Shown here in pieces: positions 11,567 to 37,848 of a DNA stretch of 43,334 nt (position 1 is its first letter; every line of letters begins with the position of its first letter). The notes beneath the pieces are model-generated. The model made no database searches and was not told the DNA's origin. It saw only the letters and a program-made list of their open reading frames with translations. The stretch is from positions 1 through 43,334 of the IMG/VR virus record IMGVR_UViG_3300027808_000052. One strand, written 5' to 3'. This DNA comes from a virus. Its lineage: Duplodnaviria; Caudoviricetes. The position numbers and the translations under genes were made by a program.

Positions 11567-14500
11567 ATGGCAATTTTAGAAAAGCGCAGAGCAGTTAATC
11601 AATTGCCAAGGTTCCAAAGGTATCAGGACACCCGCGCTGGTGACCGTGCCGCCGCTTTGCGCGGCGAGACTCCAATCACTTCAGCGATCCGCCAACTTGC
11701 TGGCTCAAGTGGCTACGGCCCAATGGGCGATTCCCAAGGCTTTAATCCAATGGGCGGTGGTATGGGTGGCCGTGGTGGGGCAGGCCCGATGGGTGGCGGC
11801 ATGGGCGGCGGTATGGGTGGCGCAGGCAAGGGCACAGTCGATAAATTTGGCAACGTGGCAGGTCAGCCTAAGACTGCTGTTACATCGGCTCTGAAGGGCG
11901 CTACTGCCGCTGAGAAGAATGCTATTGCAAGCAAGGCCGCAGGAACTGGAGCGGCTGGGACTACCTCAAAGTTACCCGGCTTGACCTCCAAGACCACAGA
12001 CGCTACTGGCAAGACCATAACCTCAACGGGTACTGGCGCTGGAAAAACGGCAGGCGTTACAGGATCAAAGACGCTGACCTCACCCGGCACTGGTACTGCC
12101 AAAACCACAGGGACTACTGGAGCCAAAACAACTGGCTCTTCTGGTTCCTCGCTCAGTAAGACTTTGACCAGCGCATTGACTGGTGCCGCTCTTGGCGCTG
12201 GAACCAAGTTTGTAATTGACAAACTAACTGGAAAGAAAACGTCAGATTCGGGAGTCTCTGGAACAGGCGCAAGCAGTGGTACGGGTCTTACAAGCAAAAC
12301 CAATCCTTTTGGTACAAAAATTGGAACGTCAATTGTTGACACTGGCGTAAAAAAGGTTGTTGACAAAGTTACAGGCACGGGCACAGCCAAGACTGCGGGA
12401 ACAGCGGGGACTGGCGTCACTTCTGTGATCAAGGGCGCTGACACAGCAGGCACCGCTGGGACTACTAAAACCACCAAGGCCGGGACAGCGGGAACTGTTG
12501 GAACAATCAAAACAGGAACCGCTGGCACCACAGGTGTTGTCAAAAAAGTGACTGATGATGTGACTAAAGGTGTGACTAAAAAAGTATCTGACACGGTTGC
12601 TAAAAAAGTAACCGATGGCGTTACTTCTGCTGTCAAACCAAAATCTCCTGTTACTCCTGCAAGCAAGACTGGAACACCCAAAACTGGAACACCTAAGACA
12701 GGTGGAGCAGGAACAAAGACTGCTGGCTCTGAAACAAAAACTAGATCACTATCGTCAACACCCACTGCTGATAAAACATCTGCGGGCACGCCTGCTGACC
12801 CATCGTTGGGGTTGCCTGAAGGCGCTATTGATAACGGCGATGGAACATACACCGTTGGCAATACAACCTACAGTATGGAAAACGACGCTGTGTTGTACAC
12901 CATCGATGCCGATGGAGCCATTACTCTTGCGGATGCAACGGAGGGTGGTGCTGGGGTTGCATACGACGACGACGGCAACTTAATGCCGGGATATGAGTTA
13001 GATGAAAACGGCGATGCCGTGTTTGTTGGCGATGCCACTTCAACCATATACGACCCTAGTGGCGGATCAATTACTAGCGACACAAAAACCATTAACTCTT
13101 TTGATACAACCACACAAGTCATGGACGACGGCACTGTTGTAACTCTTGATGCCAATGGCGACATTGTTTCTTACACCGACACCGATGGCGTTGAATACGA
13201 TGCCGATGGCAACGAAATTGTTAGTGGTGGTGGTGACGGCGGTGAAGATGGTGATGGAAGTGATGAAGGCGGTGGAGGCGAAACCACCGAGACATTAGAT
13301 GATGGCACTGTAATCACATACGACGAAGACGGTGACATTGTTTCCTACACTGACACTGATGGGGTTATATACGACGGTGACGGCAATGAAATTGTTGACG
13401 ACTCTGGTGGCGGTGATGGCTCTGACGAAGAAGAAATTGTTGCTGACGAAGAAGAGGCATACGACGGCTTGTACTCTGATGATGAGGGTAACTTGTACGA
13501 CGCTGAAGGAAACTTTGTCCAATACGCCGATGGCACTATGGCTGGCGAAGAAGAGTTTGCTGAAGGCGCGGTGGCTTACACCGATGAGTACGGCAACACC
13601 TACGATTACAACGGCGACCTTCTTGAAGAGGGCGACTACTCTGACTATGTTCAGTATGACGAGGACGGAAACTCCTACAACTTTGATGGAGAACTGATCG
13701 ACTACGCCGAAGGTTATGACCCAGCCGAAACGTACACCGCCGATGATGAATTTACCTTTGAAGACGAATACGCATCCGACGACGAGTATTCCTATGAAGA
13801 CGACTACTCATATGACGACCTTGACTACGGAAAAAAAGGTGGCTTGATTCACATGGAAAACGGCGGCGATGTCTCTGAGGAAGACGGCGAACCAATAGAA
13901 GAAGAAGAAAATGAAGACGGCACCATTACCCAATACTTTGATGATGGCTCATCAATCACTTACGGCGAAGACGGCGAAGTAAATAGCGTTACGGACACTG
14001 AAGGTGTTGAGGAGTCAGGCGGAGGTGATTCAAATAATGCGGAATTGCAAACTAGAGGCGTGAGTAGCAATGGTCAATTAACTGCCGATGAAATGCTACA
14101 GATTCTTGACGACAGGAAAATATCGCGTCAAGCAATGGAGAGGCAACAAATAGAAGATGACTTCAACGCTGAAGAATCTTTGGCTAACTATAGGGCTAGA
14201 AATGGTTTGCCGCCTCTTACAACCTCTACGTCTGTCCCTGTTTCTGAGCAGAATCTTCAGGGAAAAAAATATTTTTCTGACGGCTCTTATATTCTTTTTG
14301 ACAAATTTGGTACTCCTGTTCAAACGGCAGACGCCGATGGAAACCTATCACTTTACAGCCCCGACATAAAGCCCTCAGTAAATTCTCAAGCAACTGCCAC
14401 ACTTGCGCGTGATCCAAACTACTCAAATACCACAGAGAAAGTTCAAGATTTCCAAAATGTTGGCTACAACTTTGGTGAGTTAGACGACTCCACAATGACG

Positions 14501-16066
14501 GGTTACACAGGGGCTGGTAATCGCAACCCAGTAGGTAACACTTATACTGGTTTGTCTGATGCAGTAAACACCTCACCCCCAGAAGGCTGGCCTGAAGGGT
14601 TTGTTTCCAATGATGACGGCACAGCCACTTATGTGGACGACGACGGTAGCACCGTGACCATTGACGTTGACAGCAACATTGTGTTTGTGACGGACGCATA
14701 CGGCGATGTGGTCGCGCAAGATGGTGAGGCGGTTACTACTGGCGGCTTGGGCCAAGCAAATCAAAACATCCAATATTTTGATGACGGCTCTTACATTCAA
14801 ACTTTTGACGATGGAACATCTATCACATTTGATGCTGATGGAAATCCTTTCCGAGCAACAGACTCTGAAGGCAACTCACAACTTGCCAACACAACTTCTT
14901 ACGATGACGATGGCAACCAAACTATCTCTGACTACTATGGCAACATAGTTAAAGTTCTTGATCCGCAGGGCAATGTGATTCCTATGGGCGGAGGCAGGAT
15001 CAGCACCGCCCCGATCACCAATGTAGGTAGCACTGGCGCGGTTGGCACTGATACTGAATCAGCCGTCCAGAAAAAGATTGAAGATCAGCAAGTTAACAGA
15101 GATACCAAAAGCGCAATTGATGACTTGCTTGCAGGCTTAAACACCTACGGTGGCGCAGGCGCGGCTGGCGCTGTTCTTGGCGCGTTGCTGAGTGACACCG
15201 ATTTGTTTGGTGGCGGTGGCGGAGGCCACAGTTTTGACATGACTGGCGTTGGAGCAATTGACCCGCGCACAACAGACTTTGGCATTGGCCCAGCGAACTA
15301 TGTTGGCTACGACCAGTACGGCACGCCAGAACAGATGCCCGAGTTGTATGGCCGCGAGTTGTATCAGAACTTGAACGCCCCCGGCTTCAACGAGGTGAAC
15401 CCCGGGGACTACGCTCAGTACGACGAAGAAGAGTTTGGCTCAGACGATATGTATTTGGAAGAGCCTATGGACGAAGTTCAGCCTATGGCCGAGGGCGGTA
15501 TGCCTACGGGCGGGCTAGGTCAGACATATCCTGAGACCTACTACACCTTTGGCACCCCTGTTGATCCTTTGCAGAACCTGCGTAATCCAGCGCCGTACCA
15601 GCCACAGCAACCACAGATGCAACCTCAGATGCCTCCACAGGCCGCTCAGAACGCCCAACAAGCGCCGATGGGTATGCAACCGATGGGTATGATGCCTCAG
15701 ATGCCGCCTATGGCTCCAATGCCTCAAATGTCGCAGGGGATGCCTCCTGCTGGCATGAAGAGAGGCGGCTTGCCTGCTTTGTCAAATGTGCCAATCACCC
15801 AAGGTCGCTTGAACTTCCGCCAAGGTGCGGCAGTCCACGGCCCCGGAGATGGTCAGTCTGACGACATTCCAGCGATGCTGGCTGATGGTGAGTATGTGAT
15901 TGACGCCGATACCGTAGCCCAAATTGGCAACGGCTCTACAAAAGCAGGCGCACAGGCTCTGGACAAATTCAGGGAAAATATCAGAATGCATAAGCGGTCT
16001 GCACCCGTGAATAAGATTCCGCCTAAGACCAAGGCGCTTACTTCCTACTTGAAAGGAGCCAGATAA
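11567..16066 (+). CDS. Large probable internal virion protein (1499 aa)
   Basis: Basic K/T/G-rich N-terminal region, acidic [YF]DxDG[ND] repeats, Q/P/M-rich linker, and a C-terminal GPGDGQSDDIPAMLADGEYV domain. Confidence 0.65.
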   Translation: MAILEKRRAVNQLPRFQRYQDTRAGDRAAALRGETPITSAIRQLAGSSGYGPMGDSQGFNPMGGGMGGRGGAGPMGGGMGGGMGGAGKGTVDKFGNVAGQPKTAVTSALKGATAAEKNAIASKAAGTGAAGTTSKLPGLTSKTTDATGKTITSTGTGAGKTAGVTGSKTLTSPGTGTAKTTGTTGAKTTGSSGSSLSKTLTSALTGAALGAGTKFVIDKLTGKKTSDSGVSGTGASSGTGLTSKTNPFGTKIGTSIVDTGVKKVVDKVTGTGTAKTAGTAGTGVTSVIKGADTAGTAGTTKTTKAGTAGTVGTIKTGTAGTTGVVKKVTDDVTKGVTKKVSDTVAKKVTDGVTSAVKPKSPVTPASKTGTPKTGTPKTGGAGTKTAGSETKTRSLSSTPTADKTSAGTPADPSLGLPEGAIDNGDGTYTVGNTTYSMENDAVLYTIDADGAITLADATEGGAGVAYDDDGNLMPGYELDENGDAVFVGDATSTIYDPSGGSITSDTKTINSFDTTTQVMDDGTVVTLDANGDIVSYTDTDGVEYDADGNEIVSGGGDGGEDGDGSDEGGGGETTETLDDGTVITYDEDGDIVSYTDTDGVIYDGDGNEIVDDSGGGDGSDEEEIVADEEEAYDGLYSDDEGNLYDAEGNFVQYADGTMAGEEEFAEGAVAYTDEYGNTYDYNGDLLEEGDYSDYVQYDEDGNSYNFDGELIDYAEGYDPAETYTADDEFTFEDEYASDDEYSYEDDYSYDDLDYGKKGGLIHMENGGDVSEEDGEPIEEEENEDGTITQYFDDGSSITYGEDGEVNSVTDTEGVEESGGGDSNNAELQTRGVSSNGQLTADEMLQILDDRKISRQAMERQQIEDDFNAEESLANYRARNGLPPLTTSTSVPVSEQNLQGKKYFSDGSYILFDKFGTPVQTADADGNLSLYSPDIKPSVNSQATATLARDPNYSNTTEKVQDFQNVGYNFGELDDSTMTGYTGAGNRNPVGNTYTGLSDAVNTSPPEGWPEGFVSNDDGTATYVDDDGSTVTIDVDSNIVFVTDAYGDVVAQDGEAVTTGGLGQANQNIQYFDDGSYIQTFDDGTSITFDADGNPFRATDSEGNSQLANTTSYDDDGNQTISDYYGNIVKVLDPQGNVIPMGGGRISTAPITNVGSTGAVGTDTESAVQKKIEDQQVNRDTKSAIDDLLAGLNTYGGAGAAGAVLGALLSDTDLFGGGGGGHSFDMTGVGAIDPRTTDFGIGPANYVGYDQYGTPEQMPELYGRELYQNLNAPGFNEVNPGDYAQYDEEEFGSDDMYLEEPMDEVQPMAEGGMPTGGLGQTYPETYYTFGTPVDPLQNLRNPAPYQPQQPQMQPQMPPQAAQNAQQAPMGMQPMGMMPQMPPMAPMPQMSQGMPPAGMKRGGLPALSNVPITQGRLNFRQGAAVHGPGDGQSDDIPAMLADGEYVIDADTVAQIGNGSTKAGAQALDKFRENIRMHKRSAPVNKIPPKTKALTSYLKGAR

Positions 16067-16992
16067 TGGCTGGACTTTTTCAGGGTGATGCCCTACCAGA
16101 TGTAACGACGACGACGCAGACGCAAGCGACCGCGCCAGAGTTCTACACCAACTACCTTCAAGACATTGCCAACCTTGGTCAGAACGCCGTCCAGCAGGGC
16201 GGTGTGGCTGGGTTCAGCCCACTGCAACAACAAGCCTTCCAGATGGTGCCTGATGTGGCATTTGCTGGCGCTGGCTCGATGGGCGCGGCATCCCAGTTGA
16301 TGGGGCAGGCTGGCGCAACCACCATGCCTGATGTGGTGGCTGACTACATGAACCCCTACACCAGAGGTGTGGTGGATGAGATGGGTCGCCTGCAACAGCG
16401 AAGCATTCAAGAGAACATCCTGCCAAACCTTGGCGCGGCGGCGGCTGGCTCTGGTCAGTTTGGCTCACGCCGTCAACAACAACTCACTGGCAACTCCTTG
16501 CGTGATCTTCAGTCTGACTTGTTGGGCAAGCAGATGATGGCCCTTCAGTCTGGATATTCAGACGCTGGCAAGTTTGCACAACAGGATTTGACTCGCGCCC
16601 TACAGGCTGGTCAAGGTTTTGAGAACTTAGGCGAAGCACAGCAACGGTTGGGTCTTGGTGGTCTCAAGGCCATGAACGAGTTTGGTGGTCAGCAACAGGC
16701 TCTTGGTCAAAAGATGCTGGACTACCCAATGGCTCAGACGCAAGCCTTTTCTCAGTTGATGAAGGGTTACCAAGTCCCCGGCGGTACGGTCACTCAAGAG
16801 ACTGGCCCAAAGTCTGGCGCATACTCCAACAGCCCACTCTCTCAAATTGCAACATTACTTGCAGGTTTGGGTTCTTTTATGCCCAAAGGAAAAAGCGGTG
16901 GTGCGGTGATGATGAAGCATGGCGGCAAAGCCCACCGCTCAAAAGCCCATGCCTATTTGGCACGCGGCGGTTCAGTAAAAATGGCGAGGTAA
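16066..16992 (+). CDS. Probable ejection / DNA-transfer protein (308 aa)
   Basis: Q/G/A-rich helical protein with YMNPY...VVD and GQFGSRR motifs as seen in podoviral ejection proteins; stop and start overlap with the upstream gene. Confidence 0.65.
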   Translation: MAGLFQGDALPDVTTTTQTQATAPEFYTNYLQDIANLGQNAVQQGGVAGFSPLQQQAFQMVPDVAFAGAGSMGAASQLMGQAGATTMPDVVADYMNPYTRGVVDEMGRLQQRSIQENILPNLGAAAAGSGQFGSRRQQQLTGNSLRDLQSDLLGKQMMALQSGYSDAGKFAQQDLTRALQAGQGFENLGEAQQRLGLGGLKAMNEFGGQQQALGQKMLDYPMAQTQAFSQLMKGYQVPGGTVTQETGPKSGAYSNSPLSQIATLLAGLGSFMPKGKSGGAVMMKHGGKAHRSKAHAYLARGGSVKMAR

Positions 16993-16995
16993 TAA

Positions 16996-18918
16996 ATGGC
17001 ACAACTACCAAAAGGTGGGTTGAACGCAGTGGCTCCTGAAGCACGCGTGCCTCAACCTCCTCCCCAACAAGGTCAGCCGCCTAATCCTGCACAGGCCGCA
17101 CAACGCATCTCTGGCTTAGAGCAAGAAGTTCCTGCTGAAGAAGATTTTGAATTAAGAGTTGCACGCAATTTGCGTGAGCAACAACGGGCTTTAAATTCTC
17201 AAATGGATTTATTGAGGAAGACTGCTGAAAAACGCATGAATCCCGCATTTGATCCTGCGTTAATGGCGGCGGCGGCTGGGTTTGCCAAGCCAACTAAAAC
17301 GGGTGGATTTGGGGAGTCTCTTGGCTACGCAATGGAAAATTATGCGGCAGAGTCAGAGAAAGAATTAGCACGCAAGCAAGCAAACGACAAAGCCATGTTG
17401 GAAAGACTCCAGCAACAACAAAAGATGCAGAATCAAAGTTTGTTGTTTGAGAGCGACTTGCGCAGGGCTGGCTATAACCCTGAAGAAATTACAACGCTAT
17501 CAAGTGGCCCTGCTGGTGGTTCTCCTGCTAGTGGTTCTTCTGCTGAAGGCTCCGCCCCTGCTGGCGGCGCACAGCGTCAGCGGCGACCTCTTACTCAGCG
17601 GGACGTTGATATGGCCTTTGCGCTTGGCGACCCTGACAGAGCCAAGCAATTGATGGAACAGTTGAAGTTGGAGCAAGACAGATATTTAAGCACGGCACAA
17701 GGTCTTGTTGACAAAAGAACTGGCAAAGTAGTTGATACTGGCGTTGAGTCAACAATTAGAACATCCCTTCCTTTTGTTGGTGTGGAAGATGTTACAACCA
17801 AGCAGTTGGCGCAAATTAGGGCGCTGGATGAGAAATTTCCTGCGGCTGAAGGCGACCGTCCCGCGCACCCACAGCGTGTTGACCAATTTGTCCGCTACTA
17901 TTACGCCAACGGTATTGGTGGCGTCACTGCCCCAAGTGGCTCATCCGCTCCTTCTGCGGGGGGAAGTCCTGCTGGCGCTCCTGCGGCAGGTGGTTCCTCT
18001 GGCGCTCCTGCTGGTACTCCTTCTGCCGCTCCTTTTGCTGGAGGATTTTCATCCCCAAGCGGAGGCGGCATGAAAACCTCTGCCCAACGGGAATCTGAGC
18101 GGAGAATGCTAGAAGAGGCAGAGAGAGCAAGACTTGCAATAATACAAGCGTCTGAAATTGAAGCCGCTAAAAAACAAATTGATACTTATCAAAAGTTAAA
18201 AGACAAAATTTATTCAGATGTTGACAATGCAAGGCCAATGATTAACAACGCAGGCTTTGTATATAAATTTGCAACCGACCCCAAAACTCAAGGCGCATTT
18301 GGCGTTCTTTCTCAAGGCGATGTTGGTGGTGCAATTGGTACGCTTGTAGCCGAAGGACTTAGCACCCCCGGCGGAAGTATTAAAATTGCAGGGTTAGAAA
18401 ATGCCGTGCGATTGATAAAAGGTACGCCAACAGAAATAGCCGCCGCTCAACAACTTGCAAGCAATTATGCGGAACTTGAACTTGCATATCGAAACAAATA
18501 CTTTACAGGAACGGGTGGCGGAGCCATTTCAGACAAAGAACAAGCGGTCGTGCAAAGAATTGGCGGCAATTTGTCTGACACGGCACAAGTTGCGGCGGCT
18601 AAAGCCGAAATTATTCTAGCAAGAGCAAGATTTGATCAAGCACTGGGTAATAAATTTTATGAGTGGGAGGCGCAAAATCCTAAATCATCAATACAAGTAT
18701 TTAAACGATCAGAAGGATACAAAAAACTTGCTGATGATTACGATTTGCACATGGATAAGTTGTTTAACAAATACTACGGCGGTACTGCACCTGCTGGAAA
18801 TGCTCCTGCCGCGCCTTCAGCATCACCTGCGGCCCCGAAGCCACAAGCCCAACCACCTGCAAACGAAACTTTGTTGGAAAAGTTTAAAAGAGAAAAAGCC
18901 GCACGGGGGAATCCATAA
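16996..18918 (+). CDS. Probable ejection protein (640 aa)
   Basis: LMAAAAGF.KPTKTGGFGESLG motif, coiled coils, P/A/G linkers and a GAISDKE motif; located in the ejection block. Confidence 0.6.
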   Translation: MAQLPKGGLNAVAPEARVPQPPPQQGQPPNPAQAAQRISGLEQEVPAEEDFELRVARNLREQQRALNSQMDLLRKTAEKRMNPAFDPALMAAAAGFAKPTKTGGFGESLGYAMENYAAESEKELARKQANDKAMLERLQQQQKMQNQSLLFESDLRRAGYNPEEITTLSSGPAGGSPASGSSAEGSAPAGGAQRQRRPLTQRDVDMAFALGDPDRAKQLMEQLKLEQDRYLSTAQGLVDKRTGKVVDTGVESTIRTSLPFVGVEDVTTKQLAQIRALDEKFPAAEGDRPAHPQRVDQFVRYYYANGIGGVTAPSGSSAPSAGGSPAGAPAAGGSSGAPAGTPSAAPFAGGFSSPSGGGMKTSAQRESERRMLEEAERARLAIIQASEIEAAKKQIDTYQKLKDKIYSDVDNARPMINNAGFVYKFATDPKTQGAFGVLSQGDVGGAIGTLVAEGLSTPGGSIKIAGLENAVRLIKGTPTEIAAAQQLASNYAELELAYRNKYFTGTGGGAISDKEQAVVQRIGGNLSDTAQVAAAKAEIILARARFDQALGNKFYEWEAQNPKSSIQVFKRSEGYKKLADDYDLHMDKLFNKYYGGTAPAGNAPAAPSASPAAPKPQAQPPANETLLEKFKREKAARGNP

Positions 18919-20615
18919 TGGACTTCAGCAAACTTTCACCAGAGCAGATGAAGATTGCCGATATGGTAATCAAGGCGGCTGGCGTTCATGGCGTTGATCC
19001 AAATTTGCTGTTAGCACAGGCTTTTCAAGAATCTAAGTTTTCCCACATTCCATCAGCAGACCCAAAAAGTGATGCGTTTGGGGTAATGCAAATTCGCCCA
19101 AGCACTGCGGAGCAAAACAAACTGGGCGACATCAATGATTTGGAAACCAACATCAATGGTGGCGCAAGGCTGATGAAGCAATACCTTGACAAGTACAAGT
19201 CGCCAGAAGCGGCTTTGCTTGCATACCACCAAGGGCCGGGAGTCGCTGACTCTTATATAAAAAACAACGACCTTAAATCTGTTGGCCCCAAAGGCTTGGA
19301 CTACGTCATCAAAATTGGTGAGAACGGAGGGTTTGGGCAGACAAATGAGCCTCAAAATGCAGAAGCCCCGAACACATTTGGTGAAGTACAACCATTGCCC
19401 CCGCCCGCTCCGCCAGCAATAGACAAACGTCCCAACCTCAAGGATATGCCTGACTGGTATAAAAACTTGAGTCCGAAGATTCGCAACCGTGAAGGTGACA
19501 TCAGTGTGGGAACCGTGGGAGCCGCCGGGGCTGGTCTGGGCGTTGGGGCTTCTCTCTTTGGGAACAAGGGTTTGGCGGCAATGGAGAAGGGCGTTTTTGA
19601 CGCCAAGGCCGCATACCAAGCCGCACAGGCGGCGGCACAAGGAGCGGTAGGTGCCTCTGCTGACACAGCCCAAAAATTGGGCGCAGAGGTTCAAAGACTT
19701 GAGGCAGAGTACCGTGCTTCGTTGGCTGGCTATCAGGCGCTTGAGCGTGAGTTGGCAGAAGCAATGGCTGAGTCCAAACGCTACTTGCCGCCAGAGACTG
19801 ACGCTCGTGGCAAGGTGGCTGGAGAGTCTGGCACCAAAACTTATGCCCGCGTGATGCCGGGTCAAGTTCCCCCAGAGGCAATGCTTGCTGAAATTGAAGA
19901 CCAGACACGGGGCAAGAATCCTCGCGGTAAAGGGGCGTGGGACATTGCCGACAAAAACGCCGCCAACATTGAAAAGCAAAAGCGTTTAGGCATGGGCGGC
20001 TTTAAAATGACTGGCACTGGCGCAGATCAACTTATTTTGGGGCCAGAGGGAACCGCTCTTCGCCAAGCGCAAATGGATGCCGCTGGTCAAAGGGCAAAGC
20101 AGTTGTCTCCGCTTGCGCAAGCCGCACAAGGTGAGGCAGAGGCGGCTAGACTAGCAAGTGAAACGGCAGACAGGGTTAGACAACGAGAAGTCGCCTCCGC
20201 CCAAAAAGCGGCGCGAGAGGCTCAGACTGCGGAGCAAGTCGCCAAGACTGGTATTCAAGCGGCAACTAAGGCGGCTCCAAGTGGCCTTGGTAAAGTTGGT
20301 GCGCTTGCGCAAAAGATACCCGGCACCAATGCTATTGCTGGTTTGGGAATGGGTATGAGCGCCGCAGAGGCATTAAACCGATACGAAAAGGGTGACACCT
20401 CTGGCGCTGTTCTATCAAGCGTACAGGTCATTTTGGACGGTATGGCTATGCTACCCCCCGGCACTCCCGTTACGGCGTTCCTGAAGGGAATTGGCGTGGT
20501 TGGTGGGCTTGCCACTACGGCTTACGATATTTACCGAACTCAACAAATGGACGCCGCCGAAAAGGCAAAAAACCCACCACAAAAGGCCCGTGGCGGGTTA
20601 ACATTGATGCGGTAG
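18918..20615 (+). CDS. Virion protein with N-terminal lytic transglycosylase (SLT) domain
   Basis: GVDP.LL.A....ES.F (catalytic Glu), A.GVMQI.P.TA, NI.GGAR...YLDKY and ALLAYHQGPG motifs. Confidence 0.85.
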   Translation: MDFSKLSPEQMKIADMVIKAAGVHGVDPNLLLAQAFQESKFSHIPSADPKSDAFGVMQIRPSTAEQNKLGDINDLETNINGGARLMKQYLDKYKSPEAALLAYHQGPGVADSYIKNNDLKSVGPKGLDYVIKIGENGGFGQTNEPQNAEAPNTFGEVQPLPPPAPPAIDKRPNLKDMPDWYKNLSPKIRNREGDISVGTVGAAGAGLGVGASLFGNKGLAAMEKGVFDAKAAYQAAQAAAQGAVGASADTAQKLGAEVQRLEAEYRASLAGYQALERELAEAMAESKRYLPPETDARGKVAGESGTKTYARVMPGQVPPEAMLAEIEDQTRGKNPRGKGAWDIADKNAANIEKQKRLGMGGFKMTGTGADQLILGPEGTALRQAQMDAAGQRAKQLSPLAQAAQGEAEAARLASETADRVRQREVASAQKAAREAQTAEQVAKTGIQAATKAAPSGLGKVGALAQKIPGTNAIAGLGMGMSAAEALNRYEKGDTSGAVLSSVQVILDGMAMLPPGTPVTAFLKGIGVVGGLATTAYDIYRTQQMDAAEKAKNPPQKARGGLTLMR

Positions 20616-23841: not shown

Positions 23842-23869
23842 TTGCAGAAATGATTTTATGGTGTATGAT
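23842..23869 (+). promoter_or_regulatory. Rightward sigma70-like promoter
   Basis: TTGCAG-16 nt-TATGAT upstream of the Cro-like gene. Confidence 0.65.
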
Positions 23870-23896
23870 CAACTTTCACCAACCACTGGAGTCGAT

Positions 23897-24106
23897 ATGA
23901 CCTTAGAAGAATTTTTTGAAGACAAGCCGCGAGGATCGAAGATTGCTTTGGCTCGACATCTACGCATCACAAAGCAGTGGATGGCGGCAATCATCACAGG
24001 GCGCGGTCTGGCAAGCGCAGAGGTTTGCGCCGCGATTGAGAGGTACACACGGGGTAGGGTGTTGCGTGCAACCCTGCGGCCTGATCTTTTTGGAGAACTC
24101 AAGTGA
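23897..24106 (+). CDS. Cro/YdaS-like HTH regulator (69 aa)
   Basis: ALARHL.IT..W.....G...S...C.AIE..T.G.V....LRPDLF signature; GGAG RBS. Confidence 0.8.
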   Translation: MTLEEFFEDKPRGSKIALARHLRITKQWMAAIITGRGLASAEVCAAIERYTRGRVLRATLRPDLFGELK

Positions 24107-24768
24107 TCTGGTACAAATTTTATTTGGGCGACTACATCACGCATACCAACCACCTGTCGGATGCCGAGGACTTGGCCTACCGCAGACTGTTGGATTTGTA
24201 CTACATCAGCGAGAAGCCAATCCCACTCGAAACCGAATCGGTTGCACGCAAGATACGGCTAGATTTAGACATAACCGAATCGGTTTTGAGGGAGTTCTTT
24301 GACAAGGGTGTTGACGGCTATCGAAACAGTCGTTGTGACATCGAAATTGGGAAGTACCAGCATCAAGTTGAGACCAATCGACAGTTGGGTCTCAGAGGAG
24401 GAAGACCCAAGAAAACCGAATCGATAACCGAAACGAAACCGAAAGTTAACCCTAATCAGATACAGAAACAGAAAGAGAAAGACATAAATACCCTTTCGTC
24501 GGTTGCACCGACAACATCGCAATTTGAAGAATTTTGGAACAACTGGCCTGCATCAAAACGGAAAGTCGGTAAAACGGCCTGTAAGGCGAAATGGGAGCGT
24601 CAAGCACTAGACCCCTTGGCAAAGAAAATAAACGCAGTGGTGACCCGTTTAAAGGCTTCTGAGCAGTGGATTTCGGGGTTTGAGCCTGCCCCACTTACGT
24701 TCATCAACCAAAAGCGGTGGGAAGATGACTTAGGAACCGATTCGGTTTTGTCAAGGAGGGTAATATGA
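24103..24768 (+). CDS. YdaU/DUF1376-type replication initiator
   Basis: WYKF..GDY...T.HLS..EDLAYRRLLD.YY..E.P, GGRPKK linker and C-terminal F.EFW..WP...K.GK...P.TF.NQ.RWED; internal iteron-like repeats. Confidence 0.8.
   Translation: MIWYKFYLGDYITHTNHLSDAEDLAYRRLLDLYYISEKPIPLETESVARKIRLDLDITESVLREFFDKGVDGYRNSRCDIEIGKYQHQVETNRQLGLRGGRPKKTESITETKPKVNPNQIQKQKEKDINTLSSVAPTTSQFEEFWNNWPASKRKVGKTACKAKWERQALDPLAKKINAVVTRLKASEQWISGFEPAPLTFINQKRWEDDLGTDSVLSRRVI
24231..24455. repeat. Iteron-like repeats / putative origin within the initiator gene
   Basis: AACCGAATCGGTT at 24231 and 24273; AACC(GAA) units at 24414, 24426, 24437 and 24448, followed by an A-rich tract. Confidence 0.6.
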
Positions 24769-25001
24769 CTAAAGAAGAGCGTTTGGAATTATTTGCAATG
24801 CAGTCTGAGTTAATCAGCGAGCCATTCCACAAAGTTGGTAAACATAAAGAGGTTGATGAAGTTATCAAAAATCAAATTGTCCATTTTGCCAATTTGGTAA
24901 TTGCTCACGAGCGCGAACAGTTTTGCCTACAACTTCGTCAATTCCATGATTCAATTTCATTGGCAAGCGTATCTGAAATTGTTTTGAGGGGTGAAGAATG
25001 A
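24765..25001 (+). CDS. Hypothetical protein (78 aa)
   Basis: ATGA-coupled at both ends; AGGAGG upstream; FA.LV.A.ERE motif common in small phage ORFs. Confidence 0.6.
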   Translation: MTKEERLELFAMQSELISEPFHKVGKHKEVDEVIKNQIVHFANLVIAHEREQFCLQLRQFHDSISLASVSEIVLRGEE

Positions 25002-25432
25002 CCCCCGCCGAAAAGTTTGTTCAACGCCTTGGCAGGGTGAAGGGCCGTAACGGTTCATGGACTGCACAGTGCCCAGCACATGAGGACAAGTCACCATCGC
25101 TGTCAGTTCGGGAGACCGAAGATGGCCGCGTGCTGGTGCATTGTTTTGGTGGTTGCGCGGTGCATGATGTTGTTGGTGCCGTTGGCATGGACATGAACGA
25201 CTTGTTCCCACCAGACAGCAAACGCAAGGACTGGCCTGAAGCAGGTAAGCCAAGCATGAAGCCAGCGTTCTACGCCAGTGACCTCCTGCGCATTGCGTCG
25301 TTTGAATGCTTGGTGGTGATGATTGCGGCATACGACATTCGGCAAGGCAAGAAGTTAACCGAATCGGATATGAATCGGTTGCAAGTCGCTCAACAGCGAA
25401 TAGAAGAGGTGGTTCAGTATGCAAACGTCTGA
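24998..25432 (+). CDS. Stand-alone CHC2-type primase zinc-binding domain protein
   Basis: CPAHEDKSPSLS...VHCFGGC; no TOPRIM domain follows. Confidence 0.8.
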   Translation: MTPAEKFVQRLGRVKGRNGSWTAQCPAHEDKSPSLSVRETEDGRVLVHCFGGCAVHDVVGAVGMDMNDLFPPDSKRKDWPEAGKPSMKPAFYASDLLRIASFECLVVMIAAYDIRQGKKLTESDMNRLQVAQQRIEEVVQYANV

Positions 25433-26420
25433 GATACAAGAGCGGGCCAAAGCCCTTGATGATGCGCGGCGTATCCGTATTGTCAAACCAGATCAGGTGG
25501 ACTTTGATAAGTACCTGAAGGCCCACGACCTCGGCCAGAAGATACGCGATGCCGAAGGATTTCTTGAGGAGATGCGGTCTGACTTGATTAACCCAGAGAC
25601 CAAAGTTTGCCAGACCATGCCGTGGACAAAGACCCATGCGGGATTCCAGTTCCGACCCGGCGAGGTGACGGTCTACGCAGGCGGGAATGGTGGGGGCAAG
25701 TCAATGATCACGGGTCAGATTGCATTAGGGCTTGTCAAGCAAAACCAGAAGGTGATGATTGCATCGTTTGAGATGAAACCCAAGCGCACCCTGTATCGAA
25801 TGCTTCGCCAGTTTGCAGGCGAGAACATTGACTCCCCCCGCTACATAGACCGAGAGACATACATCAGAGGCTTGTTGGATCGATTCCAGATGTACAACTA
25901 TGGCAAGTTGTGGCTGTACGACCAGCAAGGAACGGTGACCAGCCAGCAGGTGATTGCTGTGGCCCGTTACAGTGCGATGGAGTTGGGTGTCGGCCACATC
26001 TTTATAGACAGCCTGATGAAGTGTGTGGCCGGGGAAGATGACTACAACGCGCAGAAGTATTTTGTTGATGAGTTGACTGCATTGGCGCGTGATCACAACG
26101 TCCACATCCACTTAGTGCATCACATTCGCAAACTAGCAAATGAAGAGGTCAAGCCAAGCAAGTCAGACCTCAAGGGTAGTGGCTCGATCAGTGATCAGGT
26201 GGACAACGTCCTGCTAGTGTGGCGCAACAAGAAAAAAGAACACGACGCACAGTTGGGTCAAGTCGATCCGATGATTCCTGACGCGATGATGATGTGCGAG
26301 AAGCAAAGGAATGGCGAGTCCGAAGACTGGTACTCGTTTTGGTATCACAAGGACAGCCAGCAGTTTATGGAATTTGACACAAGCGTACCGATGTCGTTTG
26401 ACGCAGGGGGGAGATTTTGA
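25419..26420 (+). CDS. SF4 (DnaB / T7 gp4-like) helicase
   Basis: Walker A GGNGGGKS, SFEM, IFIDSL, HIHLVHH.RK, DLKGSGSI...DNV and KQRNG motifs. Confidence 0.9.
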   Translation: MQTSEIQERAKALDDARRIRIVKPDQVDFDKYLKAHDLGQKIRDAEGFLEEMRSDLINPETKVCQTMPWTKTHAGFQFRPGEVTVYAGGNGGGKSMITGQIALGLVKQNQKVMIASFEMKPKRTLYRMLRQFAGENIDSPRYIDRETYIRGLLDRFQMYNYGKLWLYDQQGTVTSQQVIAVARYSAMELGVGHIFIDSLMKCVAGEDDYNAQKYFVDELTALARDHNVHIHLVHHIRKLANEEVKPSKSDLKGSGSISDQVDNVLLVWRNKKKEHDAQLGQVDPMIPDAMMMCEKQRNGESEDWYSFWYHKDSQQFMEFDTSVPMSFDAGGRF

Positions 26421-26653
26421 ATGAAGAAGGCAAAGGAGAAGATGAGCATCGCCATCGCTGTCTCGTTCGGTGGGTCATTAAAAAAAGACTACAAGATCGT
26501 GACGGTGCTTACAAGTGGCTCAACGGCCGCCGTGACCACTTGGGGCAATACAAAAAGGGATGGAACGAACTACATCCCAAGTCGCGTCTTGAGGCAGATG
26601 TTCGAGAACAGTGGACAAAGGGTAATCGAGGAAACGAAGGAGAGTGGAAATGA
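26417..26653 (+). CDS. Hypothetical phage protein (78 aa)
   Basis: Overlaps the helicase stop; EHRHRCLVRW...LE.DV.EQW.KGNRG. Confidence 0.6.
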   Translation: MNEEGKGEDEHRHRCLVRWVIKKRLQDRDGAYKWLNGRRDHLGQYKKGWNELHPKSRLEADVREQWTKGNRGNEGEWK

Positions 26654-26859
26654 ATATATTTGAGCAGGGCAAGACCCTCTACACACAGAATGAATTCAAT
26701 GATGCGTTGACCGAAGCGAAAGCGGAGATCATGGCGGTTGCAATTCAGACCACAAAGCAGGCGCTTGTTATTGAGCGCAATGCCTGTGCTGACCTTGCGT
26801 TGCAGTGGAGCCAAGAAGAATTGTCAGAGGCCATACGCCATCGCATGAGGCCACAATGA
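26650..26859 (+). CDS. Hypothetical protein
   Basis: ATGA-coupled at both ends; ER.ACA.L motif. Confidence 0.6.
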   Translation: MNIFEQGKTLYTQNEFNDALTEAKAEIMAVAIQTTKQALVIERNACADLALQWSQEELSEAIRHRMRPQ

Positions 26860-27203
26860 TTGAGATCACACTACCTTGGCCTCCTACGGTCAACAGTTAT
26901 TGGCGCAACTTCAATGGTCGCACCATCATCAGTGCAAAGGGGCGCGAGTACCGCAAGGCAGTCGCTGACCAAGTGCTGATACAACGAGCCGCCAAGCACA
27001 TCGACCACGCAGTCAAGGTGGAGATTAAAGCGTACCGCCCAGACCGCCGCCGTCGTGATCTAGACAACATTTTGAAGGCTTTGCTTGACTCCATGACCCA
27101 CGCTGGCGTGATGGAGGACGACGCCTTGATTGAAGACTTGCGCGTGTTTTGGGCAAAAGAAGTTGGCGGCATGGTCAAAGTAACGATAGAGGGATTGGAA
27201 TGA
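26856..27203 (+). CDS. rusA: RusA-like Holliday junction resolvase
   Basis: LPWPPTVNSYWR, PDRRRRDLDNILKALLDSM and DD..I motifs. Confidence 0.92.
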   Translation: MIEITLPWPPTVNSYWRNFNGRTIISAKGREYRKAVADQVLIQRAAKHIDHAVKVEIKAYRPDRRRRDLDNILKALLDSMTHAGVMEDDALIEDLRVFWAKEVGGMVKVTIEGLE

Positions 27204-30942: not shown

Positions 30943-31126
30943 AACCGAGTCGGTTCTTGGCCTCAAAGGCCGAGGCCGACAACATCATCTGGCCTTAGAG
31001 GTCGTTGATGTAGGTGAGACAAGGCAATGGCCTTGATTGGTATTCCTATGCCTAAAGCATAGACTGGCGAACCATAAGCGAATCGATTACACTGCGATCA
31101 ATTCGACACTATGGGGAATATGGGTC

Positions 31127-31738: not shown

Positions 31739-31825
31739 AAAGCCTTCCACCACCTACGGGTTAACCCTTGCTTTCGGGCCTATTGGTGCCAGAAAACACG
31801 GGCTGAGACCAAAAGGTGCCACGTT

Positions 31826-33250: not shown

Positions 33251-33258
33251 GGAGCAAC

Positions 33259-36200
33259 ATGGCTGACCCAACCAAGGTGATCAAAGGCGGATTAAAGGCT
33301 ATACAGGCCGCAAGCAAGGCGGCTGATGAGCAGTTGGCCGCAGGCAAGTTGAAGGCGGCACTGGAGGCCCAGCAAGCGCCCATGACGCGCCCCCAAGGCA
33401 CTGGCTTGCCTCTGATGCCCCGAGACTATGGGATGTACACCTTGCGTGAGCAGAAAGACCTTCCCCGTATGCCAATGGTGGACAAGGCCCGCGCCGAAGG
33501 CAAATCGCCCAAGTACAACGAGCGGATGCAAGATTTGCTCGACAGTCCCAAGGCCCGCAAGAAGGTGGACAACCTGATCAACAAGGGCAAAGACCTCAAC
33601 GTACAGGAGTGGTACGGCACCGAACCCCTGCGCCAAGTTACGCTGGATGCTGGCCGCACACCAGAGCAGTTTGAGTCAATGCTGGCGCAATTGGCAAGCG
33701 CCAGCCAGCGCAACCCGGTGGACAAGCAGAATCAGATGGGTTCATACCTGTACTACCTGAGTGAGACAGGCCAACTGCCTGCCAATTCACTCTTGTTGAC
33801 GAACAAACTCAAGAAGGCGCTCAAGGAAGACCCGTCGCTGGCCCAAGGCCGCACCTTGGTAGAGTTGCCCAAGGGCTATGGATCGCTGGCGCAGGGTGAC
33901 ATCTTTAACCGCGCTGTGATGATCGGCCAAGGCGACATTGCTGGCGCTCTACCCCCAAATAAGAAGTTGGGCACCTTCTATGAAAACCTACTGGGCAACG
34001 TCAAGCCCGTGACGGTGGATGTGAACGCACTGCGTGGCCCTATCATTGAGCAAGGTGACCCGCGTTGGCTGACATCCAAGTTGGTGGAGAAGGATGAGAC
34101 TGGCAAGATCACCAACTCGTACAAGCCGCGTGAGATGTATGACAGTGGCGAGATGTCGATGAGGGAGGCTCAACAGCGCCCCGGGTTTTGGGAGGCCGCG
34201 CCCTCTGGCTCCGAGTATGCAGGCTTTGAAGAACTGTGGCAACGCGGTGCAAAGCGTCACAGCATTGAGCCAGCAGAGGCGCAGGCGCTGGGCTGGTACG
34301 GCTCTGCTGATGTGACGGCGCTGAAGACCAAGCCAGAGAACTATGTGGACAACCTTGAGAGGTTGATCAAGCACACAGCCGAGCAGACAGGTAAGTCGCC
34401 TTCTGAGGTAATGAACGACATGATTACTGGCAAGGGCTTCCTACGCAAGGAGGGCGGCGCAGTGAAGCGCGAAGAATCCAAAGAAGACATGGCCCGATTC
34501 CAAAAGCGATTCGCTATGCACAAGGCTATTGGCGGCAGAGTCAAGAAGATGGCAGGCGGTGGCCGTGTCAGCATCTTTGACGCGCCAGCAAAGCGCATGG
34601 CAAGTGGTGGTAAGGCCAGCATCTTCGACAAGCCCGTCCACATGGTTGACGGTGGCAAAATCGGCAGAGGCTTGATGAGCGTCTTTGACAAAGCCAGCAA
34701 GGCCGCTGATGCCACGCTGGCTGGCGCAAAGGCATTACCTGTGGCAGAGCGCGACGCTAACCTTGCCAAGATGCTTGAGAAGAGCAAGGTTAAGAACAAG
34801 GCGTATCACGCAACAGATCAAGATGTAAAGCGGTTTGATCCAAAAGCAGACAAGCGAACAGAGAACAAGTCCAACATTGCTGGGTGGATGACAAACGATC
34901 CAGAGTTTGCAAACGACTTTGCGTCGCAGAAGTTTAGGTATTGGAAGACCCGTGAAAGACCTTGGGAGGAAGACCCTAATGTGCCACCGGGCGTGAACAT
35001 TATGCCTGTGCATTTGTCAATTGAGAATCCTTTTTACGCCACCGACCTGATCAAGAATTTATCTGGCGAACTGAACATGGATGAGGCCAATGCCGTGGCA
35101 AAGGCGCTAGGTGTAGGCGTTGATGAGTTGCTTGGCGACATCCCCAAGGCCATTAAGTACAAATCCTCTGGTAGTGAGCGTGAGCATATGCCCAGAGGGT
35201 TTGACCTTGTGAAGTCCACCGTGGCAACCGACGCGATGAAGCGACTAGGCCATGACGGCGTGATTGCCATTGAGAACGGCTCAGAAGTCTACGCGCCCTT
35301 CAAGGAAACGCAAATCAAATCTGCCACAGGCAACCGTGGCACCTATGACCTTGGAGAGTCTGACATCACTAAAGCCCGTGGTGGCCTGCTCCACATGGAC
35401 AAGGGCGGGAATGTAAAAGATAAGAGTTGGGAAGAAAGACTCTTCAAAAAATTTGAACATCTTCCCAAAATAGGGCCTCCATCACCATTTTCTCCGTTAG
35501 ACGTTGCTTATGGGTTATACAAATATAAAACAGGAGCATTCCCAATAGAAAACTGGTATAGCGACCTTGAATTTCGTACAAGACCCCGTCAAATTGATAC
35601 AGGTTCTGTGCCTGTGGGCACGCAATTTAACTCAACTGATTTTGATTCAAATGAGTTAAACAAAAAACTTGAACCAGTTCAAAGCCGCGCCAAAGGCGGT
35701 GCCGTCGGGCAAGAGTCACCAGCAGACATGGCACGTTTTAAGAAACGGTTTGCCATGCACAAAGCAATTGGTGGCGCGGTCAAGAAGCCCCAGAAGTTTG
35801 ACGGTGGTGGCATTGCATCCCCAGAGGAAAGTTCTGGCTCTCCACCTGACCGTGAGCAAACCAAGGCTGGCCTGATGGCCGAGTTTCTTGCCAAAGCGGC
35901 AAAGGATCAAGGCAAGGAGGAATTGTCCAGCCTAAAAAAGCCACGCGCCCTCACGGATTTGCTTAACCGTGGCGTGCTGGCGAACAATCCATTAAGCGCA
36001 GGCGTTGACCTTTTCAATTTAGGTCTGAATGTTGTTGGTGCAGGGAGCGAAAAGCCATTCCTTGGGTCTGAACACATGAAGGACTTGATGAACAAGACGG
36101 GCGTGACATCAGGCGAAGAGCGCCCCATGATGGAGACTGCGTTGAGTTTTGCCAGCCCCGCAGGCATGATCAAGGGGGCTATGAAAGCAACAGACGCGGC

Positions 36201-37848
36201 AAAGAAAGCGCCTGAGTTAATCAAAAAGGCATCAGACGCATTCACTTCAAGTAAAATGTCTCCTCTGGCAACAGGGGTGAAGACTGCAACGGCAGGGAAG
36301 CCAACAGGAGCAACATATGCTACAAAACAAGAAGGGCCATTCTTCCGAGTCAGCCCAACAACACTTGACACAAGTAAGGCAAAGACGCGAGGAATTAGAG
36401 AGGGAGATGAACTACAAGGCCCAGCCCCTCTCGGAGAAGGAGCAGGATCAACTGGACGCGAAACTCCGCAACTCTTATCGTCAGAAGAGGTGGGTCGAAT
36501 AATTGCAGACCCAGTTGCAAACGAGCCACTGAACATTGCAAAGAAATACACGCAAGAGACCCAAGGCGTTGACTTTGGGGTGCCTAACATCCCTGAAAGT
36601 TCGCTTGCCAAACAGTCAGCCATTGGCCGCGCACAGCAACTTGCGGTAGAGGGATCGCCTGAGTACAAGACGGCGGTGTTTGACGCCTATGCCAAGCAGA
36701 TGCCTGATGTGCTTGAGCAGGCAGGAGCCAAGAACTACGACGACCTGATGGAGAAGGCTTATCGTCAGATGGCAAAGGAGACTGACGATCAGTTCAAAGT
36801 CCTGCCTTACAACTTTTCGTACCACCGCGCAGGTGAGGGAAACTACAACGGGGCTATGGACATGGCCTCTGATGTCCACGGCAACAAACACCTGTATGTG
36901 TACCAAGGCGGTGACAAGCACGATTTTCTAAACCGCATAGACCCAGCGTCTGGCTTGAACGAGAACGAGAAGTTCCGCGCTGTTCACGACCTGCTTGGTC
37001 ACGCCATCTACGGCAACCAGTTTGGCCCCAAGGGTGAGGAGATGGCATGGGCCGTTCACAGCCAGATGTACAGCCCGTTGGCAAGGTTGGCTATGACAGC
37101 GGAGACTCGCGGTCAGAACTCAATGGTCAACTACAGCCCGCTGAACGCAAACTTAAAGGCTGAACTGGCAAAATACGACAACATGGCAAACGAAGCCCGC
37201 AGGAAGGGCGACGAGACTCTTTTGAGCAAGATCAATGCGGCCAAGCGGCAAGCATATGCTGGCTTTGAATTTGCGCCCAACAAGGCGGTTTTACTGCCCC
37301 CTGAGTTCCTTGACCCCAAGTTTGCTGGCGGAATGCCTGCTTACCTACAAGCCGCAAACCGACCCGCCAAGGGAACCGAAACCCAATCGGTTTTGACTCA
37401 CTTTAGCAACGACCCTAATTTGCAATCAACTGATCCTCGCAGGTACGGCACTGGCATTAAGGGTGCGGAGGGTGAGCGCCTGCGCGACTATGCTGGTGGC
37501 GTGCGTGACCGCTCGTACTTCTACATGGGCGAACCCGGGACGGTGTCACCCGAATCGGGCCTCGGGGTAAACCGCTACCGTGGCGAGGCGTCCAGCCTGT
37601 ACGACATCACGCAAGACCCGTTGAATTTTCAGAAGTTAGCCCGCGAGTCAAACCGCACGCCATTTACGGCAAAAGTCAACCAAGGCGTAACCTACCCTTT
37701 ACAGGATGCCAACGACATCGAACGTTTGGTTAAAGAATACGGCTACCAAGGCATGGCAAATCCAAAGGCCACCAAGCCAACGGCTATCATGTTTAAAGAA
37801 ACACCAGTTCGCCGCCAAGCACGCGGTGGGCTTACATTGATGAGATAA
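33259..37848 (+). CDS. Large polyvalent (multi-module) protein with ADP-ribosyltransferase-like domain(s)
   Basis: Module at about 34790-35370 has YHAT...FDP...WMT..P.FA..FA...IMPV.L.I.NP...GHDGVI...E....F...QIKSA.GN.G.YD, the ART-PolyVal-like pattern. Other modules are separated by xxxGG linkers. Confidence 0.75.
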   Translation: MADPTKVIKGGLKAIQAASKAADEQLAAGKLKAALEAQQAPMTRPQGTGLPLMPRDYGMYTLREQKDLPRMPMVDKARAEGKSPKYNERMQDLLDSPKARKKVDNLINKGKDLNVQEWYGTEPLRQVTLDAGRTPEQFESMLAQLASASQRNPVDKQNQMGSYLYYLSETGQLPANSLLLTNKLKKALKEDPSLAQGRTLVELPKGYGSLAQGDIFNRAVMIGQGDIAGALPPNKKLGTFYENLLGNVKPVTVDVNALRGPIIEQGDPRWLTSKLVEKDETGKITNSYKPREMYDSGEMSMREAQQRPGFWEAAPSGSEYAGFEELWQRGAKRHSIEPAEAQALGWYGSADVTALKTKPENYVDNLERLIKHTAEQTGKSPSEVMNDMITGKGFLRKEGGAVKREESKEDMARFQKRFAMHKAIGGRVKKMAGGGRVSIFDAPAKRMASGGKASIFDKPVHMVDGGKIGRGLMSVFDKASKAADATLAGAKALPVAERDANLAKMLEKSKVKNKAYHATDQDVKRFDPKADKRTENKSNIAGWMTNDPEFANDFASQKFRYWKTRERPWEEDPNVPPGVNIMPVHLSIENPFYATDLIKNLSGELNMDEANAVAKALGVGVDELLGDIPKAIKYKSSGSEREHMPRGFDLVKSTVATDAMKRLGHDGVIAIENGSEVYAPFKETQIKSATGNRGTYDLGESDITKARGGLLHMDKGGNVKDKSWEERLFKKFEHLPKIGPPSPFSPLDVAYGLYKYKTGAFPIENWYSDLEFRTRPRQIDTGSVPVGTQFNSTDFDSNELNKKLEPVQSRAKGGAVGQESPADMARFKKRFAMHKAIGGAVKKPQKFDGGGIASPEESSGSPPDREQTKAGLMAEFLAKAAKDQGKEELSSLKKPRALTDLLNRGVLANNPLSAGVDLFNLGLNVVGAGSEKPFLGSEHMKDLMNKTGVTSGEERPMMETALSFASPAGMIKGAMKATDAAKKAPELIKKASDAFTSSKMSPLATGVKTATAGKPTGATYATKQEGPFFRVSPTTLDTSKAKTRGIREGDELQGPAPLGEGAGSTGRETPQLLSSEEVGRIIADPVANEPLNIAKKYTQETQGVDFGVPNIPESSLAKQSAIGRAQQLAVEGSPEYKTAVFDAYAKQMPDVLEQAGAKNYDDLMEKAYRQMAKETDDQFKVLPYNFSYHRAGEGNYNGAMDMASDVHGNKHLYVYQGGDKHDFLNRIDPASGLNENEKFRAVHDLLGHAIYGNQFGPKGEEMAWAVHSQMYSPLARLAMTAETRGQNSMVNYSPLNANLKAELAKYDNMANEARRKGDETLLSKINAAKRQAYAGFEFAPNKAVLLPPEFLDPKFAGGMPAYLQAANRPAKGTETQSVLTHFSNDPNLQSTDPRRYGTGIKGAEGERLRDYAGGVRDRSYFYMGEPGTVSPESGLGVNRYRGEASSLYDITQDPLNFQKLARESNRTPFTAKVNQGVTYPLQDANDIERLVKEYGYQGMANPKATKPTAIMFKETPVRRQARGGLTLMR

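Follow-up and report, generated by a model that had tools for sequence, protein, structure and literature searches.

Four proteins encoded by IMGVR_UViG_3300027808_000052, a virus contig of 43.3 kb (Duplodnaviria; Caudoviricetes), carry at their module borders and C-termini copies of one short peptide motif, [MFYLKR]-[AK]-x-G-G. The contig was analyzed as a complete record of 43,334 nucleotides, referred to here as the window, with an estimated completeness of 79%. In the consensus, M, F, Y or L (or K or R) at position -3 relative to the first Gly is followed by K or A at -2, any residue and GG, often with A or V at +2. The motif is real and widespread, and it acts as a signal at the level of the peptide. 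Both tape-measure cleavage and codes common to several virion proteins have precedents, and the mechanism put forward here is a proposal: we tentatively favor the view that the motif marks a virion maturation cut just before A/K-x-G-G. The carriers are probably head-internal or ejected proteins, judging from gene position, from lytic transglycosylase (SLT) and ART-PolyVal domains, and from the precedent of a packaged polyvalent protein, gp47 of phi24B, which was detected by mass spectrometry (phi24B preprint).

The carriers, their motif copies and a motif-free control are located as follows.

11567..16066, plus strand: 1499-residue probable internal (ejection or cargo) protein, defined by its open reading frame (ORF) and composition; role suggested by its position behind tail and gp13-like genes
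13829..13867, plus strand: tandem GKKGG-LIH-MENGG; homologues have single or tandem copies at the equivalent place
15485..15499, plus strand: MAEGG, ranked by the matrix described below and kept in homologues
15755..15769, plus strand: MKRGG, ranked by the same matrix; precedes the GExV module
15815..16063, plus strand: GExV module, the last 83 residues of the 1499-residue protein (PHROG 6090/5448; PDB 8zdo)
16066..16992, plus strand: 308-residue probable ejection protein, homologue of Caulobacter phage RW gp65c
16888..16992, plus strand: C-terminal tail of the 308-residue protein with three copies, GKSGG-AVM-MKHGG and LARGG-SVKMAR-stop
18918..20615, plus strand: 565-residue probable ejection protein with an N-terminal SLT domain (Pfam PF01464, E 1.6e-16)
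20583..20615, plus strand: C-terminal KARGG-LTLMR-stop of the 565-residue protein, optional among homologues
33259..37848, plus strand: 1529-residue polyvalent protein, between the large terminase and portal genes (ART-PolyVal, E 3.7e-13)
34444..34656, plus strand: motif cluster 1 (RKEGG, KAIGG, MAGGG, MASGG, MVDGG), between module A (residues 1-396) and the ART module
34801..35343, plus strand: ADP-ribosyltransferase-like domain (ART-PolyVal), flanked by clusters 1 and 2
35371..35409, plus strand: motif cluster 2, KARGG-LLH-MDKGG
35686..35811, plus strand: motif cluster 3 (RAKGG, KAIGG, FDGGG), in which RAKGG is an exact T5-type R-A-x-G-G
36985..37069, plus strand: HDLLGH...GEE (residue 1243), a zincin-like signature with Asp replacing the catalytic Glu (PHROG 3170)
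37816..37848, plus strand: C-terminal QARGG-LTLMR-stop of the 1529-residue protein
37853..40360, plus strand: portal protein (PHROG 1216), motif-free control
41294..41308, plus strand: MAVGG, a possible and uncertain extra copy in the probable scaffolding protein (41144-42127)

The first-pass annotation of the window, made from the sequence alone, had listed 19 copies in the four proteins, and all of these are present, in frame and where it had placed them. Their number also exceeds chance: the four proteins contain 19 instances of the pattern [MKRF]xxGG, compared with 7.6 in shuffles of whole proteins and 8.9 in local shuffles of 30 residues, and the other 45 ORFs show no excess (8 against 8.1 expected). 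It should be noted that this pattern is post hoc, having been picked after viewing the list. An independent matrix, trained on 436 GG sites in 51 small basic proteins that relatives encode in the part missing here, puts 11 of the annotated sites within the top 14 of 147 GG positions (nominal P 2e-9); the remaining three are the scaffold site, a site in the exonuclease and a second site of the 565-residue protein. Negative scores were obtained for the C-terminal KARGG of the 565-residue protein and for KARGG at 35371. When compared with glycine content, bare GG shows no excess in three of the four protein classes, which places the signal in the flanking residues; plain GG enrichment was rejected as an explanation for the same reason. 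Tandems of the form GG-xxx-[MLFY]xx-GG number 39, 15 and 17 in three of the classes, versus 3.9, 0.6 and 0.7 expected, and are absent from the other groups. The second unit of a tandem has Ala in place of the first Gly in 10 of 35 cases.

The possibility that the copies reflect a DNA repeat, a ribosome-binding site or an internal start was rejected: the Gly codons of 1177 copies are the same as those of other GG pairs, and Leu ahead of the motif is not rich in TTG. Words resembling a Shine-Dalgarno sequence lie upstream of the motif Met in 89 of 440 cases, as compared with 199 of 278 true starts and 764 of 5412 other internal Met residues; the excess over the latter is small and significant (P 7e-4). 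The ARGGLTLMR tails of the 565-residue (20586-20612) and 1529-residue proteins are identical as peptides and differ by synonymous codons. The position ahead of A/K is most often occupied by Met (38% of the 1177 copies), with F, Y, L, K and R accounting for 62%.

The first-pass annotation had made its proposal depend on conservation in homologues, and conservation was found, albeit unevenly. Counted among dereplicated homologues, controls and neighbors included, the motif is present in 48/48 proteins of the 1499-residue type, 25/28 of the 308-residue type, 37/37 of the 1529-residue type and 12/30 of the 565-residue type; the control proteins gave a match in 1/28 portals and 0/27 terminases. Two neighbors of 640 and 650 residues, which are probably internal too, have the motif in 8/33 and 2/31 homologues, respectively. 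A loose pattern also matches a fixed RKIGG in the tail nozzle protein (17/24 homologues), a probable false positive of structural nature. The scaffold site has the GG form in 15/28 homologues; in 4, Thr or Asn stands at the position of the first Gly. No MAVGG-type site exists in the RW, CRP-901 or HTVC023P scaffolds; given these substitutes and its absence from cultured relatives, it may be a helix cap. Copies placed at the C-terminus with few residues after them are found in 30/40 polyvalent proteins, 27/64 proteins of the 308-residue type, 15/36 of the 565-residue type (closed ORFs) and 21/21 of the repeat proteins described below. In the 30 polyvalent proteins, unrelated last modules finish in one common short tail.

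Inside the 1529-residue protein, the motif clusters separate a DUF7178-like module, the ART-PolyVal module, a short unique module and a C-terminal block. The protein is polyvalent by the criterion of an effector domain within a large multidomain protein, its ART-PolyVal match scoring 50.9 bits against a cut-off of 31.2, and it has both hallmarks of such proteins, the terminase-portal context and a shuffled architecture. It thereby resembles the polyvalent proteins of Iyer et al. (2017) in its ART-PolyVal domain, genomic position and mosaic build; no linker motif is named in the available text of that paper (PMC5512222). The first module (residues 1-403) lies internally, behind a motif, in the related proteins of L086, L088, L093 and L126. 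More generally, the homology breakpoints of 59 polyvalent proteins number 459, of which 180 fall within 15 residues of a motif even when motifs are masked (57 expected); there is no excess near other GG pairs (66 versus 79 expected). Modules that follow a motif repeat the leader of the natural N-terminus, a feature newly found here: 27 of 144 post-motif module starts resemble that leader, compared with 1 of 849 random stretches. As an example, a natural M-A-D-P-K-K-I-L-G-G-L corresponds to an internal M-A-D-G-G-K-L-V-K-G-L; in the window, MVDGG of cluster 1 starts such a copy. Enrichment, module map and breakpoints together uphold the idea of the first-pass annotation that a single peptide code is shared by the module borders and C-termini of probable head-internal proteins.

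Two further observations concern the same family. A linker of about 35 residues, composed of the motif, a short helix-like stretch and AMHKAIGG, is duplicated in the 1529-residue protein (34444-34560 and 35686-35790) and in its relatives. In addition, four free genes located between the polyvalent gene and the portal gene start with M-K-x-G-G (L114:6075-7751, L115:8210-9688, L116:7920-9398 and L117:8195-9679) and look as if they were modules split off at the motif.

The 1499-residue protein consists of a basic Thr/Gly-rich N-terminal part, a long acidic middle, a Pro/Gln/Met stretch and the C-terminal GExV module. The last of these, called the "GEYV domain" in the first-pass annotation, shares homology with a module found in siphophage tape measures that itself begins with F/Y-A-x-G-G, and the free motif thus corresponds to the opening element of that module; in the window, the module's own leading motif is worn down to FRQGA. 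The homology covers G.G.G.SD.I.A...GE[YF]V and is documented by 8zdo (E 9.8e-9), 8rk3 (E 0.008), PHROG 6090/5448 and 91 phage records, the family comprising 11,964 clusters at E<=0.001. The modules of Douge gp16 (PDB 8zdo), JBD30 gp46 (PDB 8rk3) and lambda gpH (residues 733-771) open with the motif; the window module is homologous to those of Douge and JBD30, and its direct comparison with lambda gpH was not significant. Unlike in the siphophage tape measures, the window module ends a head-type protein, and free motif copies are spread over other proteins. For the gp46 module, the JBD30 paper, in its available text, predicts merely a hook (PMC11445458). Two AlphaFold runs on the window module gave a mean pLDDT (predicted local distance difference test) of 56 and 64 and left the conserved Gly/Asp stretch unfolded; a Foldseek search of the PDB with this low-confidence model returned zero matches, peptidase folds included, and a search of BFVD returned uncharacterised phage homologues only. 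In the Atlas, the closest named cluster is the crAss cargo-1 domain (0.86), which serves as a lead only.

Tandem doubling of the GExV unit in some relatives, namely P0083, P0107, P0146 and L181-L184, hints that single units pair up. The middle of the 1499-residue protein (12770-14900) is very acidic, with up to 36 D/E per 100 residues, and contains repeats of the type Y-D-x-D-G-N; many homologues of the 308-residue protein have a comparable Y-D-x-D-G-N-like repeat after their last motif, at the C-terminus.

Carriers of the motif are also found outside the window. The capsid gene and its neighbors are missing from the window and were read from the relatives L082, L086, L088 and L104 (the head-to-tail stretch); scans for Pfam, PHROG and NCBIfam families covered the window ORFs together with this missing stretch. 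A basic head-module protein of relatives, newly found here, is encoded two genes behind the capsid gene; it consists mostly of motif repeats and has a net charge of +34 to +51 (e.g., L082:16854-17969 and L105:17403-18590). Its 32 dereplicated ORFs, 3 of which are small and spurious, contain 369 copies versus 36 in shuffles, with a median of 13 copies, many of which are 8-13 residues apart; the other 29 proteins all end in GG followed by one to four residues and Cys. This repeat protein, estimated to occur in about 630 IMG/VR stretches, has no match in Pfam, PHROG or the PDB. A 174-residue protein encoded nearby in relatives is built of three small modules linked by motif copies, and its DUF6321 module is a separate, motif-free gene in L100, L105, L115, L117 and L137. 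Further carriers are RW gp66c, HTVC023P gp30, gp43 and gp83, HTVC115P gp72, DSL-LC04 and MinM2, with Roseobacter phage CRP-901 showing weak, scattered matches only. In RW gp66c, the copy MARGG precedes the GExV module. HTVC115P gp72 (L174:2290-3297), from another pelagiphage group, combines the motif with a GExV module and is encoded between the portal and scaffold genes (the gene before the capsid gene), a position pointing to a prohead role; a tiny Lys-rich gene with GG adjoins it. A full-text literature search, which left most subscription papers out of reach and did not cover key supplements, yielded no published account of the motif in phage virion proteins.

According to the mechanism that we favor, while regarding it as somewhat short of probable, the carrier proteins would be packed into the prohead, and an enzyme, either phage-encoded and unrecognised or derived from the host, would cut the packed proteins before A/K-x-G-G. 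The cut would free single modules for injection, so that each effector would start with a leader like that of a natural N-terminus; the C-terminal copies would represent short tags, and the repeat protein would be chopped to short basic peptides. A cut at this position would explain why the motif sits at joints, why the leader is recreated and why a module standing alone lacks the motif, and also the match to T5 described next. In particular, a DUF6321 gene that is motif-free when separate and motif-joined when fused fits a joint to be cut, and not a tag that every module needs.

The T5 tape measure pb2 is cut after R1127 into pb2* and pb2C, as determined by intact-mass mass spectrometry (PMC10038345), and a paper defending this site gives fragment masses of 9702 and 121,683 (PMC11937500). 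In the T5 genome, the bond after R1127 joins Arg to AEGGM, and the computed fragment mass is 9701.7 Da; of five distant T5-like tape measures, four retain R-A-x-G-G and one has R-A-S-S-G. The cut thus has the x-A-x-G-G register, two residues before GG, and the window contains RAKGG and MAEGG-M, with x-A-x-G-G situated at domain borders as in T5. The two systems differ in that T5 has one site in a siphophage tail protein, whereas here many sites are found in the probable head proteins of a podophage. Analogously, the portal-bound segment of the crAss001 cargo protein gp45 that was resolved by cryogenic electron microscopy spans residues 425-552 (PMC10172136); it begins at the Ala of N-A-F-G-G and stops before the next copy, F-A-Y-G-G, at 559. 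Like the proteins described here, gp45 (PDB 7QOG; Pfam PF25725) is an internal protein with x-A-x-G-G punctuation, its sites lying near residues 207, 261, 425 and 560, and a K-A-K-G-G C-terminal tail, and its portal-bound domain, which starts at the motif site, contains GG...GEVV. The PF25725 profile had no match in the window at E<=10, and searches for homologues from T5 pb2 and gp45 returned near-identical proteins only. In lambda, gpH loses about 14 kDa, with the site and catalyst given as unknown (PMC12617516); a cut at F-ATGG (733) would yield 12.5 kDa.

As for a protease, an embedded zincin metallopeptidase is a frequent but not an obligatory part of polyvalent proteins; Iyer et al. proposed that domains of polyvalent proteins are freed by embedded metallopeptidases and described HEXXXH variants (PMC5512222). 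The HDLLGH...GEE domain of the 1529-residue protein is, by its signature, a weak protease candidate: the canonical HExxH is absent, the Pfam scan of the region gave no match, and the HDxxGH variant occurs in only 12/64 related polyvalent proteins.

Several points weigh against the cut. The family scans found no protease in the window or in the head-to-tail stretch of relatives, although a very divergent enzyme would escape them; nor was an encoded prohead protease found, the 304-residue capsid protein of L082 matching the capsid part alone of fused PHROG profiles. The one mapped cut at a look-alike site is that of T5 pb2, none coming from proteins of this phage group, and the removal of nine C-terminal residues, or two cuts eight residues apart, releases no domain. 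Arg ahead of A-x-G-G is rare (8 of 337 x-A-x-G-G sites in four protein classes, RAKGG being the only one in the window), and the T5 site is itself disputed in favor of an older assignment to V1148 (PMC11937520). When compared by hhalign, the window GExV module matched the T5-type element with a probability of 0.08 (a six-sequence profile) and gp45 with 0.91, both from thin profiles; these comparisons being without significance, the links to T5 and gp45 rest on five residues. A 98.6% hhalign match of the module to a mixed tape-measure set is partly circular, since five of the six set members were found with the query. The crAss001 paper, in its available text, treats gp45 as a single chain and makes no mention of cleavage (PMC10172136). 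Lambda gpH 818-849 was modelled as one stretch bound to gpI (PMC12617516), so that the look-alike M-R-D-G-G-L at 842, lying within it, is uncut. Finally, the available text on the proteome of podophage phiRIO-1 reports no processing and no protease (PMC4819975).

A possible but, in our opinion, rather doubtful alternative is that the motif is never cut and serves as a multivalent docking tag, binding a reader in the prohead (a GExV module, the portal or the inner face of the capsid) or itself, and thereby loading or ordering the cargo, with the repeat protein as a hub. Such a tag would suit the C-terminal copies, the many closely spaced copies of the repeat protein, the motif as first element of the tape-measure GExV module and the protease scans without a match. 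It would also agree with the position of the gp45 segment beginning with A-F-G-G on the portal, with the crAss cargo-1 lead from the Atlas, and with the lambda C-terminal look-alike lying within the gpI-bound segment. On the other hand, a tag should not be dispensable in a free DUF6321 gene, optional in the 565-residue type and mostly absent from the 640- and 650-residue neighbors, and docking leaves the match to the T5 cut unexplained. The maturation cut, for its part, fits the C-terminal tails and the close tandems less well than docking, which fits both; the motif may be first bound and then cut. Both halves of the processing-or-loading proposal of the first-pass annotation are thus still alive; the shared code on which it was built stands, and the cut after di-Gly is not supported.

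It appears unlikely that the motif is a relic of whole genes fused together with their start Met and leader, in which Gly-Gly, unread by any partner, was kept as a flexible point of unfolding for threading through the portal. The prevalence of Met before A/K, the internal module starts resembling a natural N-terminus, the four free genes starting with M-K-x-G-G and the tolerance of Ala in the second tandem unit would all be expected of such a relic and hinge. The 62% of copies with F, Y, L, K or R at that position indicate, however, that not all can be former starts, and the same peptide ends unrelated proteins through different codons, forms polymers and occurs in unrelated phage groups.

The adenovirus protease consensus is (M/L/I)-x-G-G, with the hydrophobic residue two positions before the first Gly. 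A cut after Gly-Gly in the style of adenovirus, African swine fever virus, ubiquitin/SUMO or C39 proteases, as the first-pass annotation had suggested, which would expose di-Gly C-termini or N-termini for conjugation or for acylation by the acyl carrier protein (ACP)/ketoacyl synthase genes, is very improbable: a C-terminal GG with a short extension recalls ubiquitin precursors, and ACP-like, ketoacyl synthase and gp13/GNAT-like genes lie upstream of the ejection genes, but the hydrophobic residue is here one position further out, at -3 and not at -2 (K/A), so that the analogy fails on register, the scans found no cysteine, C39 or JAB protease and no matching ligase or ubiquitin-like family, gp45 is resolved through A-F-G-G-W, and T5 pb2C starts with A-E-G-G, the cut preceding GG.

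T4, phiKZ and SPN3US encode a prohead protease that acts at Glu-ended sites, and the tag of T4 is N-terminal. The likeness to head maturation in these phages lies in one short code common to several internal head proteins (here probable ones); no prohead protease, Glu-ended site or N-terminal tag was observed here. It is conceivable, although on balance unlikely, that tailed phages at large share a maturation signal consisting of a hydrophobic or basic residue followed by the cut and A/K-x-G-G, and that this signal is recognized by a hitherto undescribed enzyme or reader, perhaps a dimeric GExV module. Such a signal would direct the cutting of long-tail tape measures (T5, and lambda between F733 and A734) and the loading and dicing of cargo in protease-less podophages, in which the basic repeat protein would be a disposable head core.

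The gene content of the window is that of a short-tailed phage, with tail and adaptor genes, large low-complexity genes up to that of the lytic transglycosylase protein, and a lambda-like replication block, followed downstream by the small terminase, large terminase, 1529-residue protein, portal, GroES and probable scaffold genes. Among cultured phages, those with the most similar portals are Caulobacter phage RW (49%), Roseobacter CRP-901/902 (33%) and Pelagibacter HTVC027P/HTVC023P (30-33%). The lambda-like regulatory and replication block (23867-27203) includes YdaS-type, DUF1376, DnaB-like and RusA genes, and the cultured relative RW has a DNA polymerase module instead. Just 5' of the ejection block (7773-9606) lie genes for an ACP-like protein, a ketoacyl synthase and a 148-residue protein, all three being present in 40-46 fetched loci. 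In the Atlas, the 148-residue protein resembles clusters of DUF2824 (0.92), which is of the T7 gp13 type, and of GNAT (0.90); the trio is possibly a set for acylation of virion proteins. A phage GroES (Cpn10) gene (40707-41147) adjoins the scaffold gene and is retained in RW, CRP-901 and HTVC023P. The title of one study refers to a selective part of the host in cleaving T5 tail proteins, and a link to a chaperonin is reported.

To our knowledge, the way in which the cargo and polyvalent proteins of podophages are selected for the head and then released is an open question. On the release of polyvalent proteins, the available text of Iyer et al. (2017) offers proposals only (PMC5512222). The motif makes precise predictions for cultured phages, namely lambda gpH between F733 and A734, crAss001 gp45 between N424 and A425, and Caulobacter RW gp66c. 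It also provides a means of parsing into modules thousands of uncultured cargo proteins, as the numbers of GExV clusters and of stretches with the repeat protein indicate. If the motif should prove to be a loading tag, chosen proteins could be packaged into phage heads.

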